DNA from: Candidatus Nomurabacteria bacterium
Lineage (GTDB): Bacteria; Patescibacteriota; Minisyncoccia; Phycocordibacterales; UBA9973
DNA length: 64,000 nucleotides
Direction of reading: 5' to 3'
Assembly: GCA_020631955.1 (NCBI GenBank)
Contig: JACKGL010000002.1
Coordinates: 141,860-205,859, forward strand
A model generated the notes under the pieces. The model did not search any database. It had not been told where the DNA came from and worked only from the letters and a program-made list of their open reading frames with translations. Both the position numbers and the translations under genes were made by a program. Of this stretch, positions 4,765-37,745 are shown one piece after another (position 1 is the stretch's first letter; each line of letters starts with the position of its first letter).

Positions 4765-5997
4765 TTAGAAGTTTATAGTTTTTAGACTTAATTTCTTTCT
4801 TCTTGATTGAATGTAAAATACTGCTGCTATAGATATGATTCCTAGAGCTATCACTATAGTACTTTCTCCACTTGTTTGAGCTAGTGTAGCATCTGGGCCG
4901 ATAAATGATCCTAGAACAACCCCACCTTCATTATTACTATCATTGTTGTCATCGTCATCATCATTGTTGTTGTGGCTTCCACCACCTCCGTTGTTGTCTA
5001 GGTTTTCGTCTCCTAGATCTACCGGGCCTCCAATATCAACATTATCTATTACCTCATCACATTGTTTTGGTTGAGATCCATATCTTACAAAGAAAGTGTC
5101 GTCGTTGTGTCCTATAGTAAGCCAGTATTTTACAATACCACCACTTAGGTTCACTTCATCATTACCAGCTTCTAGTAGAGATATACCATCTGTCATCTTT
5201 TCTACTTTATTGTCACCAGATTCGTCGTTGGTGACAGCTTCTGCTGTAGTACCAAAGTATTCTATACTACCATCTACGTGTTCAAACCCTTCTCCTGGAA
5301 GTAGTCCGTATGAAGGAAGCATAATTCTAGATTGACCAGAAGACATTCTTTCTACCACCAGACCTTTCCACGGTTTGTATACGCTTTCTGTATATGGATC
5401 ATCTACCCAGTTTGCCCCATCATATATAAGGAACCATGTTCCAGAAGGGATAGGTAGAGGGTTGTTTGCTAAGAACACATCAGCTGTTACATTACCTGGC
5501 GCTATGTTAAGTGCGCTATCTATGTTTACTCTAGCAAAAGCTAGATCTGTACAAGAGTTGGCGTTTTGACATTGGTTCGTACAGTTTGAAGTACTATCAC
5601 ACATTTCCCAAGGTTGGTTTATGATACCGTCTCCGCAATAAGGAGCGTATGAGTGTGATGTACCAGCGTCTGTCCATCCATAGTCTGGAGTATCTATATC
5701 TTCCTCATCTAGTGGAGGATGCCAATCATCTTCTACACCATCTCCAGTGATAGTAGTATCTGTATCTATAGGAGGGAAGTAATCATCTTCTACACCTCCA
5801 CTTATATCCATAACATCTACTTCATCTGTAACAGTGAAATCTACGTCATGTATAACACCTACTTCATCACCTCCTCCAAATGTAAATCCACCAGAAAAAA
5901 GCTTCATTTTAGCCTCAGCAGAGAACACAGGTACAACAACCAAAACAGCAAAAAAGGCAATAAAAGCAATATTCTTTTGTATTTTTAATATTTTCAT
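4765..5997 (-). CDS. Secreted surface protein with C-terminal sortase-type sorting signal
   Basis: Signal peptide MKILKIQKNIAFIAFFAVLVVVPVFSAEA, an Asp/Asn-rich spacer, then LAQTSG plus a hydrophobic helix and RRKK at the C-terminus. Confidence 0.6.
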   Translation of the reverse strand: MKILKIQKNIAFIAFFAVLVVVPVFSAEAKMKLFSGGFTFGGGDEVGVIHDVDFTVTDEVDVMDISGGVEDDYFPPIDTDTTITGDGVEDDWHPPLDEEDIDTPDYGWTDAGTSHSYAPYCGDGIINQPWEMCDSTSNCTNQCQNANSCTDLAFARVNIDSALNIAPGNVTADVFLANNPLPIPSGTWFLIYDGANWVDDPYTESVYKPWKGLVVERMSSGQSRIMLPSYGLLPGEGFEHVDGSIEYFGTTAEAVTNDESGDNKVEKMTDGISLLEAGNDEVNLSGGIVKYWLTIGHNDDTFFVRYGSQPKQCDEVIDNVDIGGPVDLGDENLDNNGGGGSHNNNDDDDDNNDSNNEGGVVLGSFIGPDATLAQTSGESTIVIALGIISIAAVFYIQSRRKKLSLKTINF

Positions 5998-32026: not shown

Positions 32027-32258
32027 GTGTCTTTATTGTACCAAGTTAGAACCTATTTCCAAAGTCGAACCTAATCGCACATCCGTGCGCTAAAGCGCCT
32101 CTGTGCGAAGCACAGAGCTTTTCCAAAGGAAAAGGACGGATATGCGAAATGCAAATGCGGAACGCGAGCGGAAAGAATTTTGCGGAGGACTGGGGGTCTG
32201 GGGGAAAGGGCTCCGCAAAATTTCCGCTTCGTGTGCTTCGCTGTTTTTTGGCTGGGCG
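32027..32258 (+). repeat. IR-A, left copy (232 bp)
   Basis: Checked base by base: the reverse complement of 33980..34211 is identical over all 232 nt. Confidence 0.95.
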
Positions 32259-32407
32259 GGCATTAAGAAAAGAAATACAATATTGAAATTTTGGCAAAGC
32301 CAAAATACATTCTTAGTTTGTGCTTGACCCACCCTCCCATTCGCGCACAAAAATTCTGCTCCCAAAAACAACTAGAAAAAGAGAGCAAAAAATGTTAAAA
32401 TTGCACT

Positions 32408-33973
32408 ATGGAAAATAATGGTTTCAATAAGATTATAAACAACATTAACGAACAAAAAGGAAATTTTGGTGAGCCCCTTATTGAAAAACTTGGTCTAAAA
32501 ACTGGCAAGGAAGTCTCTCTGGTTAAACGTTCTCTTTCCGAAAATTCTGCCATTGGTGTTGGACAAAAAATTGAGGGCAAACTTATCCGTGATGTTCATG
32601 TTGGGCTACCTATTGAATTAGAAAATTCAAACACAAGTCCAATCAAAGAAATAAAAGAGGAACAAGGAAAATATTTTGTAAAAACACTTACTTCTGTGTA
32701 TGAACTTTTTGTACAAGCACAAAAAGTGGGAAATTTTGAGAAAATTTCCCACTTACAAGATGAACTAAAACAAATTGAATCTCATTTAAGTGAACAACCT
32801 GAATCAATCCAAAAAATGTTTCAAGAAATGAAAGACAAATTTTATTCTTCGGTTGAAATAGATAATAAAAAATTTATGTTCACCCAATTAAATGGAAATG
32901 ATGTAATGTCTTGGGTTGAAGATAAAAAAAATCCAGGCAAATGGAAAACTCGTCTTTTCAGGTTTTCTAGTTCAGATCACCAATGGAAATCACTGCCCGG
33001 AGAACGCGATGACGGAAGTTATATGAAAGGTGATGAGGATAGTCCTTTGCATCATTATGTGCAAAGTGCGAAATTAGATAAGAGAATTTATAAATTGATA
33101 AATTCTTTGCCTCAAAAATATAATCATTATTCAGCACAAGAATATTTACCCACTCCCCCGTATGGAGATACCAAAGGTCATTTTTGGAATGAATTTGAAT
33201 TTAAGGAAAATTACCAAACATTAAAAAATAAAGAATGGGCTTCCTACCAAGACTTTTGCCAGAGGTTTTTTAAGGGTTATGAAAGATTTGTGATGGGTGC
33301 TGATGGTTTCAGAAATTTTACTTTAGACGGTGGTCTGTATAAATGGATGAAAAATCTTGAAAGCATTGCAGAGTTTAGAAATATAAAAACTGAACTAGAA
33401 AGATTAAACACTAATCCAGAATATGCTGAGGAGTTGAAGCAAAGCAGTCTTTGGCGAATGGAAAAATTTATCAATGATAAACCGGAAGTTAAACACTTTG
33501 CTGAAGTATACAAACAAAATATTGGTTCTTACGTTGAAAAATGTTTTAAAGCAAGATTTCCTGAAACAATGATGCCTGATTTCAAAAAATGTGTTGATAA
33601 ATACGATAAGGTTGATATTGCTGAACAAGCACAAAAAAATAATATTCATATTGAGGAATACAAGGTAAATAATCCTGAAGGAGACGAATTAGTCTTTGCT
33701 ATGGCATATGACGATAAAGGTCGAGTCTATATTGATAATATTTATGACCCAAGAGTAGAAATTAGTGATTATGGTATTCCAAGCGAAATAGTCCAAATGG
33801 GACATTTGGTTTACAAGCCAGAGGATTATAGACAACAAACATATGCAATTCCTGAAAAATATTTAAATGATAAAAATAGCCACAAGTATATTGACATAAG
33901 TGCATTGTGGGAAAATATCCCAGTGATTAAAAATTTCAAAGAAGAGTTAAGGGTGCGTGGTGTTTTGAAATAA
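32408..33973 (+). CDS. Orphan cargo protein (521 aa) enclosed by IR-A
   Basis: Uninterrupted ORF, AT-rich unlike the flanking repeats, with no signal peptide or recognised motif. Its stop lies 6 nt before the right IR-A copy. Confidence 0.6.
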   Translation: MENNGFNKIINNINEQKGNFGEPLIEKLGLKTGKEVSLVKRSLSENSAIGVGQKIEGKLIRDVHVGLPIELENSNTSPIKEIKEEQGKYFVKTLTSVYELFVQAQKVGNFEKISHLQDELKQIESHLSEQPESIQKMFQEMKDKFYSSVEIDNKKFMFTQLNGNDVMSWVEDKKNPGKWKTRLFRFSSSDHQWKSLPGERDDGSYMKGDEDSPLHHYVQSAKLDKRIYKLINSLPQKYNHYSAQEYLPTPPYGDTKGHFWNEFEFKENYQTLKNKEWASYQDFCQRFFKGYERFVMGADGFRNFTLDGGLYKWMKNLESIAEFRNIKTELERLNTNPEYAEELKQSSLWRMEKFINDKPEVKHFAEVYKQNIGSYVEKCFKARFPETMMPDFKKCVDKYDKVDIAEQAQKNNIHIEEYKVNNPEGDELVFAMAYDDKGRVYIDNIYDPRVEISDYGIPSEIVQMGHLVYKPEDYRQQTYAIPEKYLNDKNSHKYIDISALWENIPVIKNFKEELRVRGVLK

Positions 33974-33979
33974 CTGCCT

Positions 33980-34211
33980 CGCCCAGCCAAAAAACAGCGA
34001 AGCACACGAAGCGGAAATTTTGCGGAGCCCTTTCCCCCAGACCCCCAGTCCTCCGCAAAATTCTTTCCGCTCGCGTTCCGCATTTGCATTTCGCATATCC
34101 GTCCTTTTCCTTTGGAAAAGCTCTGTGCTTCGCACAGAGGCGCTTTAGCGCACGGATGTGCGATTAGGTTCGACTTTGGAAATAGGTTCTAACTTGGTAC
34201 AATAAAGACAC
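33980..34211 (-). repeat. IR-A, right copy (232 bp, inverted)
   Basis: Perfect inverted copy of 32027..32258. Confidence 0.95.
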
Positions 34212-34238
34212 CAGTATTGAACTTAGCGGTTGAGAACC
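34185..34238. other. attP-like quasi-palindromic site centred on the IR-A/IR-B junction
   Basis: GGTTCTAAC (34185..34193) and GTTGAGAACC (34229..34238) are symmetric about CAC at 34209..34211, with further partial arm symmetry. Confidence 0.55.
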
Positions 34239-34355
34239 AACCAAGGAGTGGGCGGCACAAAGTGCCGCCCACGCTGTTTCCCCTGATTTTCCAAACGCAT
34301 TTGGAGCCGCGCCTGCGGCGCGGCGCACTGTTTTTTCGCCAAGAAGCAGGTTCGA
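34209..34355 (-). repeat. IR-B, left copy (147 bp, inverted; includes a duplicate of the recombinase 3' coding end)
   Basis: Checked base by base: the reverse complement equals 35932..36078. It overlaps IR-A by 3 nt. Confidence 0.95.
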
Positions 34356-34437
34356 AATCAGAATGCAATTTTGGCATAGTATTTGCTTTGGATACAAAAA
34401 GAATTTTTGTTTGAAAATATTTTTGCTATACTGGAAA

Positions 34438-34530
34438 TGTTGTAACCAATTATTAGTTAGTCAGCAGAAAGGGCTATTCCAGATATCTTGACTAACGTTG
34501 AGGTTACAACACTGGAGTGGCCCTTTCTGC
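34438..34530 (+). promoter_or_regulatory. Structured recombinase leader with interleaved perfect complementarities
   Basis: Pairings: A 34438..34447 with 34502..34511 (10 bp); B 34456..34463 with 34489..34496 (8 bp); C 34464..34474 with 34520..34530 (11 bp); D 34478..34482 with 34512..34516 (5 bp). It ends 15 nt before the ATG. Confidence 0.5.
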
Positions 34531-34545
34531 TTGAAGAAAAAATAT

Positions 34546-36111
34546 ATGCAAAAATTCTTTTTGTATGCTCGCAAGAGCACCGATGTCGAGGATAAACAAG
34601 TGTTGAGTATCAAAGCTCAATTAACAGAGTTGCGCGCTTTCGCCAAAAATGAAAAGTTGGAAATTGTTAATGAGTTTGTAGAAAAGCGTACCGCTAAAGT
34701 TCCAGGTCGCCCCATTTTTGGCGAAATGATGAGACGAATTGAGAAAGGTGAAGTAAGCGGAATATTATCATGGCACCCCGATCGTCTGGCGCGCAATTCT
34801 GTGGACGGCGGACAGATAATCTACTTTCTCGACATCGGAAACCTTGCGAGCCTCAAATTCCCTAGCCACTGGTTTGAAAACACGCCACAGGGCAAATTCT
34901 CGCTGTCCATGGCATTTGTCCAAAGCAAATACTATGTAGATTCTCTTTCCGAGAACACGAAACGCGGACTTCGCCAAAAAGTGAGAATGGGTATATTTCC
35001 AAGCCAAGCGCCAGTGGGATATTTGAATGATAGCCGAACAAAAACGATTGTAGTTGAAAAGAAAAAATCTCGCATTGTGCGTTTGGCTTTCGAGCGATAT
35101 GTAAAAGGCAATCAAAGGTTAGAAGATATTGCAGAATTTTTGGCGAAGTCCGGTATTACAACCCGAACCGGAAAGAGAATCTCCAAAACCAAAGCGTCTT
35201 TTATCCTATCAAATCCGTTTTATATCGGCTTATTCAAATACAGTGGTGAACTCCACGAGGGGAAGCACGAGCCAATCATTTCAAAGAAACTTTTTGATGA
35301 AGCACAGGAAATGCTAAAACTTCGTGGTCAACCCGAAAGAAAACCACAAAATGAACCTCAACCATTTTGCGGTCTCATTTCCTGTGCTTCTTGTGGAATG
35401 ATGATAACTGGCGAACACAAATTCAAACGGCAGAAGAATGGGAATGTCCACGAGTACACATATTATCGCTGTACGAAAAAACGAAAAGATTTTATCTGCA
35501 AAGAATCTGCCGTTAGAGAGGAAGAAATGAATCGCCAGTTATCATCCCTCATTCAAAAAGTTTCTTTGCCTAAAGACTGGGCGGAGGAATTATTGAAAAT
35601 GGCGGAAAATGAACACAAAAACTCCGCCCAGTCTTTAACTGCTTGTGTGAAAGAGAAAGAAACGAAAATATCTGAAATTTCACAAAAGCTAGAGCGACTT
35701 CTTAACGGATATTTAGACCAAATTGTTGACGAGCAAGATTATCGAAATCAAAAAGCAAAATTATTGTCCGAGAAGAAGTCGCTTCAAGAAGAAATTTCAG
35801 ATTTTTCACACAAGCAGAATGATTGGCTCGAACCGATGAAAGAATGGATAAAAGACGCACAATCCTTGGACAAAATTGCTTCTGATGATGACCTTTTTGC
35901 AAAAAAGGTCAAAGCCAAAGAAATCTTTGGCTCGAACCTGCTTCTTGGCGAAAAAACAGTGCGCCGCGCCGCAGGCGCGGCTCCAAATGCGTTTGGAAAA
36001 TCAGGGGAAACAGCGTGGGCGGCACTTTGTGCCGCCCACTCCTTGGTTGGTTCTCAACCGCTAAGTTCAATACTGGTGCGCAGGAGAGGACTTGAACCTC
36101 CACACCCGTAA
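34546..36111 (+). CDS. Large serine recombinase
   Basis: Resolvase-type N-terminus YARKSTDVEDKQVLSIKAQ (catalytic Ser) and HPDRLARN, a recombinase domain, the zinc ribbon CGLISCASCG...YYRC, and a coiled coil. The last approximately 60 codons lie in IR-B and the tRNA. Confidence 0.85.
   Translation: MQKFFLYARKSTDVEDKQVLSIKAQLTELRAFAKNEKLEIVNEFVEKRTAKVPGRPIFGEMMRRIEKGEVSGILSWHPDRLARNSVDGGQIIYFLDIGNLASLKFPSHWFENTPQGKFSLSMAFVQSKYYVDSLSENTKRGLRQKVRMGIFPSQAPVGYLNDSRTKTIVVEKKKSRIVRLAFERYVKGNQRLEDIAEFLAKSGITTRTGKRISKTKASFILSNPFYIGLFKYSGELHEGKHEPIISKKLFDEAQEMLKLRGQPERKPQNEPQPFCGLISCASCGMMITGEHKFKRQKNGNVHEYTYYRCTKKRKDFICKESAVREEEMNRQLSSLIQKVSLPKDWAEELLKMAENEHKNSAQSLTACVKEKETKISEISQKLERLLNGYLDQIVDEQDYRNQKAKLLSEKKSLQEEISDFSHKQNDWLEPMKEWIKDAQSLDKIASDDDLFAKKVKAKEIFGSNLLLGEKTVRRAAGAAPNAFGKSGETAWAALCAAHSLVGSQPLSSILVRRRGLEPPHP
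35932..36078 (+). repeat. IR-B, right copy (147 bp)
   Basis: About 57% G+C by hand count (84 of 147). It contains perfect hairpins GCCGCGCC-GCA-GGCGCGGC and GTGGGCGGCAC-TTT-GTGCCGCCCAC. Confidence 0.95.
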
Positions 36112-36160
36112 GGGCACATCCACCTCAAGGATGCTTGTCTACCAGTTTCAACACCTGCGC
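36074..36160 (-). tRNA. tRNA-Leu (anticodon GAG), class II
   Basis: 87 nt including CCA. It aligns arm for arm with E. coli-type tRNA-Leu: acceptor GCGCAGG/CCTGCGC, anticodon loop TTGAGGT, long variable arm, T arm GGAGG-TTCAAGT-CCTCT. The last 5 nt lie inside IR-B. Confidence 0.9.
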
Positions 36161-37633: not shown

Positions 37634-37706
37634 GGTGTCTATAGTGTAATGGTTAGCACTAGAGTTTGTGGAACTCTCAGTTCGGGTTCAAATCCCGATA
37701 GACACC
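37634..37706 (+). tRNA. tRNA-His (anticodon GUG) with encoded G-1
   Basis: G-1 plus acceptor GTGTCTA/TAGACAC, discriminator C, anticodon loop TTGTGGA, T arm TCGGG-TTCAAAT-CCCGA. Confidence 0.9.
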
Positions 37707-37745
37707 CAAAGTGAACATTTTATATCAAATAGTGATTTTCTAAGT

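Follow-up and report, generated by a model that had tools for sequence, protein, structure and literature searches.

Organization of the locus

In this study, we analyzed a stretch of 64,000 nucleotides (nt) from contig JACKGL010000002.1 of Candidatus Nomurabacteria bacterium (the window; all coordinates refer to its full length), with emphasis on a 232-nt repeat (inverted repeat A, IR-A). An earlier note, made from the sequence alone, had described IR-A as a G+C-rich and densely structured non-coding block that is present twice, and had proposed that it is a candidate structured RNA or protein-binding scaffold. The second copy proved to be a perfect inverted one: the left arm (a, read inward toward the cargo gene; 32027..32258, + strand) is 100% complementary to the right arm (a', read outward; 33980..34211, + strand), with 1,721 nt between them, and the match grows to ~237 nt when one indel is allowed. 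IR-A directly abuts a second perfect inverted-repeat pair (IR-B, arms b and b'), with which it overlaps by the trinucleotide CAC at 34209-34211. The two pairs organize an integrated element of 4,052 base pairs (bp; 32027..36078), in which flank, a, cargo gene, a', b, recombinase gene, b' and tRNA-Leu follow one another; read on the tRNA-sense strand, the order is tRNA-Leu, b, recombinase, b', a, ORF521, a' and flank. Very likely, IR-A represents the terminal module of that half of the element which holds the cargo. The earlier note had viewed IR-A in isolation, and had overlooked the putative half-site and promoter in its outer ~40 nt, the abutting IR-B and the tRNA-integrated element as a whole.

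The left arm of IR-B (b, 147 nt; 34209..34355, + strand) begins with CACCA, the tRNA 3' end, and contains hairpins at 34249-34269 and 34306-34324. The right arm (b'; 35932..36078, + strand) overlaps the final 5 nt (C-A-CCA) of tRNA-Leu(GAG) (36074..36160, - strand), the integration target on the attL side, which was identified by ARAGORN and scored 46 bits with the Rfam tRNA model. A large serine recombinase gene (34546..36111, + strand) belongs to this module. Its product contains the Pfam domains Resolvase (E = 4.7e-20), Recombinase (E = 1.9e-18) and Zn_ribbon_recom (E = 3e-07) and matches an integrase family of PHROG (E = 1e-77). More than 7,795 homologues were found at E < 1e-60; those with a taxon name come from Patescibacteria, and many are located on contigs of ~2 kb that end at these repeats. 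The frame of the recombinase gene is open through the whole of b' (35932-36111), its stop codon being located past the crossover and inside the antisense tRNA, and the frames of its homologues remain open to about the same point. Because the frame ends beyond the crossover, the last 10-15 residues of the recombinase depend on what b' adjoins. We also considered a degenerate extension of IR-B derived from a decayed second recombinase. This candidate was rejected: once the perfect repeat is set aside, the 57% tblastn match retains no more than 9 identities in 53 positions.

Between the arms of IR-A lies the cargo gene ORF521 (521 amino acids; 32408..33973, + strand). No match to its product was found in Pfam, PHROG, PADLOC or the PDB sequences. 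The AlphaFold model has a predicted local distance difference test score (pLDDT) of 88 and a predicted template modeling score (pTM) of 0.75, and a Foldseek search of this model against PDB returned nothing better than E = 0.3. We identified 68 homologues, of which the taxon-named ones again belong to Patescibacteria and several are located directly after tRNA genes; no conserved synteny was observed in 19 genomes. The absence of synteny in these genomes and the location next to various tRNAs led us to reject ORF521 as a resident chromosomal gene, and a replication or defence protein was rejected on the basis of the empty Pfam, PHROG, PADLOC, PDB and Foldseek searches. ORF521 looks like a recurrent cargo protein whose fold has no match in the PDB.

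Features of the putative attachment sites

The outer ~40 nt of IR-A (P arm; 32027..32066, - strand) form a conserved putative half-site, at the tip of which lies the crossover trinucleotide (GTG here; CAC when read from the opposite strand, and at 34209-34211 in a'). The consensus of 55 distinct copies reads TTTTGrAAATAGGT..C....TTGGTAnAATAnAnnCAC. The half-site overlaps a predicted outward-directed sigma-70-like promoter consisting of TTGGAA, 16 nt and TGgTACAAT (promoter scan, - strand 32062-32035; the corresponding site in a' is at 34176-34203), and the pattern of the whole family, TTGAAA/TTGGAA, 16-17 nt, TG-n-TAnAAT, is that of an extended -10 promoter. The scan matched both arms in the window as well as in L128, a related locus on a 426-kb contig. 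In another relative (L129), the P arm has diverged and still reads TGTATAAT. On these sequence patterns, the outer ~40 nt of IR-A are probably the P half-site of the recombinase combined with an outward promoter, which would start transcripts at the crossover. Degenerate tRNA remnants in IR-A were considered as another candidate and rejected: ARAGORN finds none, and the GGTTCGA/GGTTCTAA motifs are part of the conserved P arm.

The invariant AATAGGTTC portion of the P arm, which includes the AGGTTC motif, resembles a tRNA T-arm. All target tRNAs end in CAC(CA) and carry GGTTC at a constant distance; relative to CAC, GGTTC occupies -20 to -16 in every target tRNA and -24 to -20 in the P arm. A zinc-ribbon motif offset between attP and attB half-sites is a feature described for other large serine recombinases. 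The shift of GGTTC resembles this offset and, if the analogy holds, would explain the use of many tRNA species.

On the tRNA-sense strand, CAC is present at both outer junctions of the element, in the window and likewise in L128. In sequence, the junction between tRNA and b and that between a' and the flank behave as expected of attL and attR, respectively. The internal junction between a' and b (a'/b junction; 34186..34235, + strand), which reads GTACAATAAAGA-CA-CCAGTATTGAAC, forms an imperfect dyad at 16 of 26 positions and is conserved across loci; it looks like an intact attP-like site of inverted polarity, and is known only as this internal copy. Since the ends of either the recombinase module or the cargo module carry the core in opposite sense, each module alone could only invert, and the idea that every repeat-bounded module is a separately excisable unit is ruled out by this core polarity. 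The two modules could jointly excise because only the pair has direct CAC ends. The excised circle that we infer would hold two 376-nt inverted repeats dividing a recombinase segment from a cargo segment.

A further promoter-like site (TAGAAA, 17 nt, TAAAAT, with TG upstream) was observed ahead of the cargo at 32373-32401 in the window and at 5550-5578 in L128. It is located just inside the inner end of a and is common to these two elements, the cargo of which is unrelated.

Recurrence among related loci

The distribution of this architecture was analyzed in 83 recombinase loci related to the element of the window, to which all recurrence tallies refer. The b repeat was detected in 71 of them, with a median arm identity of 99.3% and 33 perfect pairs. 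In 38 loci a tRNA gene abuts a b arm, at the b' end in 37 cases and at the b arm in one. The targets are tRNAs for Leu (19), Val (7), Tyr (7), Ile (3), Arg (1) and Gly (1), and recombinases that are 74-100% identical to that of the window use many different tRNA species.

The earlier note had raised the possibility that homologous elements keep the recombinase and lack the structured block. This was not borne out. Of the 50 loci whose left flank could be read, 39 have the P arm directly beside b by a strict test. Ten of the 11 negative loci are explained by a detected arm start that does not coincide with the real start of b (arms that are truncated or incomplete, or a tRNA located there), and the remaining one is L129 with its diverged P arm. 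Complete a/a' pairs of 181-487 nt abut b in nine loci (L094, L095, L102, L103, L046, L096, L072, L068 and L063). The cargo of these nine is unrelated and, on inspection by eye, includes an ABC transporter, a restriction-modification pair, a tryptophanyl-tRNA synthetase with a racemase, and a Mur ligase with FemAB. The complete layout is also present at tRNA-Tyr in L128, where the DNA beyond a' is a classic bidirectional terminator that presumably represents the original downstream DNA of this tRNA gene, which lends indirect support to a formerly unoccupied site.

Modules may also be combined in other ways. L063 contains the chain a'/b-R1-b'/a-X-a'/b2-R2-b2', and in L069 cargo modules flank the recombinase module on both sides. 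In L011 the recombinase module appears reduced to a 20-bp palindrome: at 5478-5524 of this locus, tRNA-Leu(CAA) is followed by the perfect palindrome CACCAGAAAAATAATGTAGC-TTCA-GCTACATTATTTTTCTGGTG and then by an a-type body (with the hairpins H2 and H3 described below) and cargo that includes a homologue of ORF521. This palindrome looks like a recombinase module collapsed to two repeat stubs.

Related contigs often start ~105-125 nt outside the a'/b junction, as expected when a repeated a module is assembled from short reads. Both arms of IR-A recur in the independent assemblies L002 and L003, and Logan unitigs break within the repeat; IR-A is thus not an assembly artefact.

Sister strains have the same flank and agree over the initial 37 nt of a, beyond which the body of a and the cargo differ. 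Furthermore, a 100% identical stretch of b plus recombinase was found in L027, where it adjoins another tRNA-Leu and the surrounding DNA is unrelated. In most loci the arms are nearly identical to each other, which provides indirect support, from the sequences, for ongoing exchange between them. Flipped versions of segments were found in L004, L119, L027 and ~10 contigs of the Joint Genome Institute (JGI), which are unreliable since the repeats exceed the assembly k-mer length. We did not accept these isomers as proof of inversion, given that either isomer contains all four edges of the assembly graph and that L118 is chimeric; the latter joins a foreign L19 gene and a 97%-identical element to the flank known from the window. 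MEGAHIT k141 contigs (L118, L004 and L119) pass straight through the 147-nt and 232-nt repeats and can link different genomes.

Additionally, the homology of sister strains to the window ends exactly at the 3' end of tRNA-His (37635-37708). A different large serine recombinase of 540 amino acids follows this tRNA in L118 (4787-6409) and L119 (3459-5081), and several contigs break there. The tRNA-His 3' end is a second insertion site, which is empty in the window.

Structure and conservation of the repeat body

All structural details reported in the earlier note were reproduced when the sequence was read directly, including the hairpins CTCTGTGC-GAA-GCACAGAG (32099-32117) and CTTTTCC-AAA-GGAAAAG (32118-32134), the 12-bp helix AATTTTGCGGAG/CTCCGCAAAATT (32176-32187 and 32211-32222) with its 23-nt loop holding two CTGGGGG, and the tandem AAATGC and tandem GCTTCG. 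The open reading frames in the two arms mirror each other, and the view that the block is non-coding is supported. The block is indeed G+C-rich (51% in the arm compared with 32% in the segment that it encloses), but the background is not the ~30% assumed in the note, the mean of the window being ~36-37%. A proposed alternative pairing between 32232-32241 and 32105-32114 does exist as a 10-nt complementarity; its conserved role is not supported, as it is missing in all four relatives that have the four-way junction described below.

RNA folding of IR-A gave z-scores of -3.2 (+ strand) and -5.7 (- strand), and none of 200 shuffled sequences was equally stable; DNA folding of the contiguous 376-nt block of a' and b gave z = -8.1. 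Strong G+C-rich hairpins were also predicted in the stretch beside the P arm for all of ~35 distinct a' sequences. Two inner ends of this block were observed to be complementary, namely that of a' (CCAAAAAACAGCG, 33986-33998) and that of b (CACTGTTTTTTCG, 34327-34340), so that the 376-nt block folds with both ends paired. The inner end of a' also resembles that of b' (GCGAAAAAACAGTGC). L128 keeps only ~6 bp of this pairing, and an A-run meeting a T-run may suffice as explanation.

The body of a is a mosaic of hairpin modules. One of them is a four-way junction (32076..32146), overlooked in the earlier note, which appears in the minimum-free-energy fold of both strands and consists of a closing 11-bp stem (32076-32086/32136-32146) and three hairpins (32087-32098, 32099-32117 and 32118-32134), the first being GCGC-TAAA-GCGC. 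This multi-helix junction occurs in large and miniature forms, and the miniature form is common to five loci (the window, L081, L102, L105 and L078) in which all four helices differ in sequence. A second module, hairpin H3 (32171..32229), has the above 12-bp stem as its core, extendable to 17 bp with a 3-nt bulge. Its loop carries GGGGGTCTGGGGG in the window (CCCCAGACCCC on the a' strand), and the conserved loop TTCCT-CCCCAGACCCC-TCC is closed by at least eight different, perfectly complementary stems across loci. Hairpin H2 has the loop ATCCTTTCCCCAGAAAATAG. The inner terminus of a (32246..32258, + strand) consists of a T6 run and, after it, a G+C box, GGCTGGGCG(GGC); on the a' strand it reads as an A-run and GCCCGCCCCGCC. 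Comparable inner ends occur in L128 (TTTTTTGGCGGGGCGGGC) and L112 (TTTTCGGCGGGGCGGGC). The window has H3, the miniature junction and the inner terminus without H2, and L128 has H3 and H2 only.

A covariation test in homologues and a search against Rfam had been suggested in the earlier note. For the H3-H2 region (22 distinct sequences), 98.7% of the cells were paired and compensatory changes were present in 14 of 21 pairs, a result reached by none of 500 shuffles; in slid controls ~50% or less of the cells (28-51%) were paired. The notion that the packed structure exceeds what a recombinase arm needs is therefore supported, in that homologous elements keep the structure and its stems covary. 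These compensatory changes establish a conserved hairpin, not that the molecule is RNA. The search against Rfam 15, on the other hand, did not place IR-A in any family: at the gathering threshold, only tRNAs were detected in the window, L008, L011, L112 and L128, and the best match of a permissive search over IR-A was a microRNA model with 20.7 bits and E = 1.3.

The curated helices contain ~4 G-U cells versus 3-5 A-C cells of 452, i.e. the stems are essentially Watson-Crick without strand bias. An initial count over whole 430-nt fragments (6 versus 14) was too noisy, consisting mostly of spurious helices, and was replaced by the curated one; it likewise contained no excess of G-U. In addition, H3 is flipped relative to the P arm in L094. 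Because G-U is as rare as A-C and H3 of L094 is flipped, no signature of a single transcribed strand is present. This points to hairpins that must form on either strand, that is, to a structure at the DNA level or to RNA synthesis in both directions.

The same H2 and H3 loops are found in L008 and L011, where they accompany a recombinase with only 43% identity and a different repeat and P arm. Thus, the body of a travels with cargo modules and not with the DNA specificity of one recombinase. No guide-like matching to the target tRNA and no tracking of tRNA species was found for the loops of the a body or the b variants. Since the loops stay the same whether the target is a tRNA for Leu, Val, Tyr, Ile, Arg or Gly, a guide role is excluded. 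Elements of the L008/L011 type have a further G+C-rich, hairpin-dense block downstream of the cargo (L008 4316-4670 and L011 8925-9028), which contains CGTGTGTGCG-TATT-CGCACACACG and a 22-nt long-range inverted pair. This block is unrelated in sequence to IR-A and gave no Rfam match.

Possible functions of the hairpin array

Among the roles that the earlier note had considered conceivable (a recombination-associated non-coding RNA, a transcriptional insulator or an accessory-factor binding array), the transcriptional insulator fits best, and the strand signature expected of a non-coding RNA is absent as described above. We tentatively favor, at slightly less than an even chance, the view that IR-A is a package of an attachment (att) half-site, an outward promoter and an orientation-independent insulating hairpin array. 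Insulation of transcription by the hairpins, taken as a separate claim, is possible but rather doubtful. On this model, the ~190 nt inside the P arm would form a G+C-rich hairpin chain whichever strand is used. The chain would block transcription in both directions and protect RNA ends, like the hairpin plus T-run of b, and would shield the cargo and recombinase modules from the tRNA promoter, the outward promoters and each other. The b arm would supply the interrupted tRNA with a 3' end and a stop, and would shield the recombinase gene. Owing to the inverted second copy of b, transcripts would run into an identical barrier on whichever side they enter the recombinase module. The inverted-repeat arrangement itself would be accounted for by the need for the same inward-facing module at both ends, and recombination between arms would keep them identical.

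Several observations are in line with insulation. The b hairpin at 34306-34324 is a match of the terminator scan, followed by GCACTG and a T6 run, and b matches were obtained in both arms; b-like hairpins with covarying stems are present in L072 and L128. In several relatives (L053, L042, L127 and L039), a T-run directly follows H3 on the inward strand.

A number of points weigh against this view, both for the hairpins and for the element model behind it. An intrinsic terminator was defined here by a G+C-rich stem with a short loop and by a T-run at a distance of 0-2 nt from that stem. The terminator scan of IR-A in the window gave no match; the H3 loop has 23 nt, and the T6 run of IR-A is located 16 nt past the extended H3 stem (23 nt past the 12-bp core). 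A terminator needs no conserved loop of 19-23 nt, and insulation leaves the invariant C-rich motifs (CCCCAGACCCC and CCCCAGAAAA) unaccounted for; such invariant C-rich loops suggest a sequence-specific partner. A conserved TATAcT/TATAAT noticed by eye downstream of b may be a separate promoter of the recombinase gene, and promoter and terminator calls alike depend on consensus matches. As to the element, no empty site was found among the contigs encoding the identical flanking proteins, one scan of viral contigs gave no match to the P arm, and no circular junction was recovered. The flipped isomers in short-read contigs are unreliable and at least L118 is chimeric, and the model does not explain the benefit of an internal inverted attP-like site.

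Alternatively, the body of a, alone or together with b, might be transcribed as a structured non-coding RNA whose conserved loops bind a protein or another RNA and in this way control the recombinase or cargo genes. Such an RNA could be a riboregulator that affects the expression or the directionality of the recombinase, or a protein sponge presenting GGA/GGAGG on the G-rich strand or CCUCC on the C-rich strand. The combination of covarying stems and invariant loops is a hallmark of structured RNA, and the multi-helix junction is kept across loci. The same C-rich motif is found in the H3 loop, the H2 loop and the single-stranded linker of b, all on the strand running from a' to b, which is the one read by transcripts leaving the cargo either way. 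By eye, five G-T wobbles on the a' strand versus one A-C were counted in confidently assigned helices. However, G-U makes up less than 1% of the curated cells and is not commoner than A-C, a rarity that would be unusual if selection acted on an RNA from one strand, and H3 of L094 is inverted relative to the P arm. The only predicted promoter fires away from the body, the scan having found none upstream; Rfam holds no matching family; and the modules are mosaic, with H2 absent in the window and the four-way junction absent in L128. We consider a regulatory RNA of this kind fairly unlikely.

Stems that are Watson-Crick only, show no strand bias and tolerate H3 in both orientations would also be compatible with architectural DNA, i.e. 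extruded cruciforms or accessory protein-binding sites next to the crossover that govern synapsis, directionality or inversion. Accessory sites and enhancers have such roles in small serine resolvases and invertases. In the present family, the array is always directly inside the P half-site, near-perfect arm identity suggests frequent exchange, and neither the list of open reading frames nor the domain search revealed an evident directionality-factor gene in the 4-kb element. To our knowledge, the characterized large serine recombinases (Bxb1, phiC31 and A118) work on sites of ~40-50 bp with no accessory DNA. Furthermore, the H2 and H3 loops occur beside the 43%-identical recombinase with its unrelated repeat and P arm in L008 and L011, and the hairpins of b, which forms the other half of the site, are of a different kind. 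An architectural role appears unlikely.

In a further reading, the a'-b block would be the gene for a new class of recombinase-associated structured RNA, with a transcript that spans the crossover or starts exactly at it and with loops that contact the recombinase or a host factor and set directionality. We regard this as very unlikely. If it were true, the intact inverted attP region would be kept so that the RNA persists after integration, and the element would be the first RNA-assisted large serine recombinase system.

It is also very unlikely that the hairpins work in single-stranded DNA, where they might serve, for example, in priming or as a single-strand origin once the element has been taken up or excised, with the inverted copy serving either strand. 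Single-strand origins and the hairpin-recognized ends of other mobile DNA have conserved loops on stems, which the covarying stems with conserved loops resemble; the inverted repeat puts both module polarities on each strand, and the DNA fold of the 376-nt block is strong (z = -8.1). Nevertheless, this reading is speculative. The cargo varies and, by eye, includes nothing that resembles a gene for replication, a relaxase or an HUH protein, and no circular or free form was recovered. Finally, that the body is functionless G+C-rich palindromic clutter of a selfish kind, which accumulates in the non-coding ends of the element, or the repeat an assembly artefact, is very improbable. Although elements differ in their mosaic of modules, the loops do not vary even between recombinase lineages with only 43% identity, stems change by compensatory substitutions, module order is conserved, and the repeat is present, flanked by unique DNA, in a 643-kb contig, the 426-kb contig and independent assemblies.

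Significance and comparison with known systems

Patescibacteria, also known as the Candidate Phyla Radiation (CPR), have tiny genomes and few described mobile elements. An abundant recombinase family here brings varied genes to tRNA loci, and this element family may be a main route of gene gain in these organisms. Its repeats systematically cause assembly breaks and chimeras in Patescibacteria genomes and bins. Closely related enzymes apparently use many tRNA species via the shared T-arm and CAC end, and the body of a is a well-supported conserved structure with invariant loops outside known families. Full-text literature searches revealed no description of double inverted-repeat modules, of an attP-like junction inside an element, of near-identical enzymes that use tRNA 3' ends so promiscuously, or of the conserved structured body.

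The recombinase and its tRNA targeting are of an already known kind. The same three-domain recombinase is used by other large serine recombinase elements (such as Bxb1, phiC31, A118, SCCmec CcrAB and TnpX/TndX), which also share with the present element a fixed insertion point in a conserved gene, a short common core (CAC here), a quasi-palindromic attP-like junction, and a half-site motif (GGTTC here) located at different core distances on the element and target sides. In contrast, the known sites are ~50 bp (40-50) and lack long terminal repeats, whereas the repeats here are 232 and 147 nt, and 181-487 nt in relatives. Unlike those systems, this element has an internal inverted attP-like copy, no apparent directionality-factor gene, and many tRNA species as targets within its family.

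In its overall layout, the inferred circle resembles the yeast 2-micron plasmid (FLP/FRT), likewise having two identical inverted repeats with the recombination target and the recombinase in one segment. However, FLP is a tyrosine recombinase of a replicating plasmid, while the element described here has a serine enzyme, was seen only in integrated form, and carries cargo other than replication genes. A recombinase gene beside a segment flanked by inverted repeats is also characteristic of the serine invertases (Hin, Gin, Cin and Pin). Those are small enzymes that need an enhancer and act on repeats of ~26 bp; here the repeats are 147-487 nt and symmetric, and flipping changes nothing obvious.

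The body of a may be compared with two other groups. The bridge and seeker RNAs of IS110/IS1111 are similar in that a structured non-coding end lies beside the recombination site and a promoter is formed at the junction. The IS110/IS1111 enzymes are DEDD transposases and the RNA loops are complementary to target and donor, whereas our element has a serine enzyme and loops that are invariant while targets vary. Intrinsic terminators and repetitive extragenic palindromic (REP)-type palindromes also consist of perfect G+C-rich hairpins in A+T-rich intergenic DNA, often with T-runs; the present array differs from both by its large conserved loops, its multi-helix junction and its fixed place inside a recombination arm.

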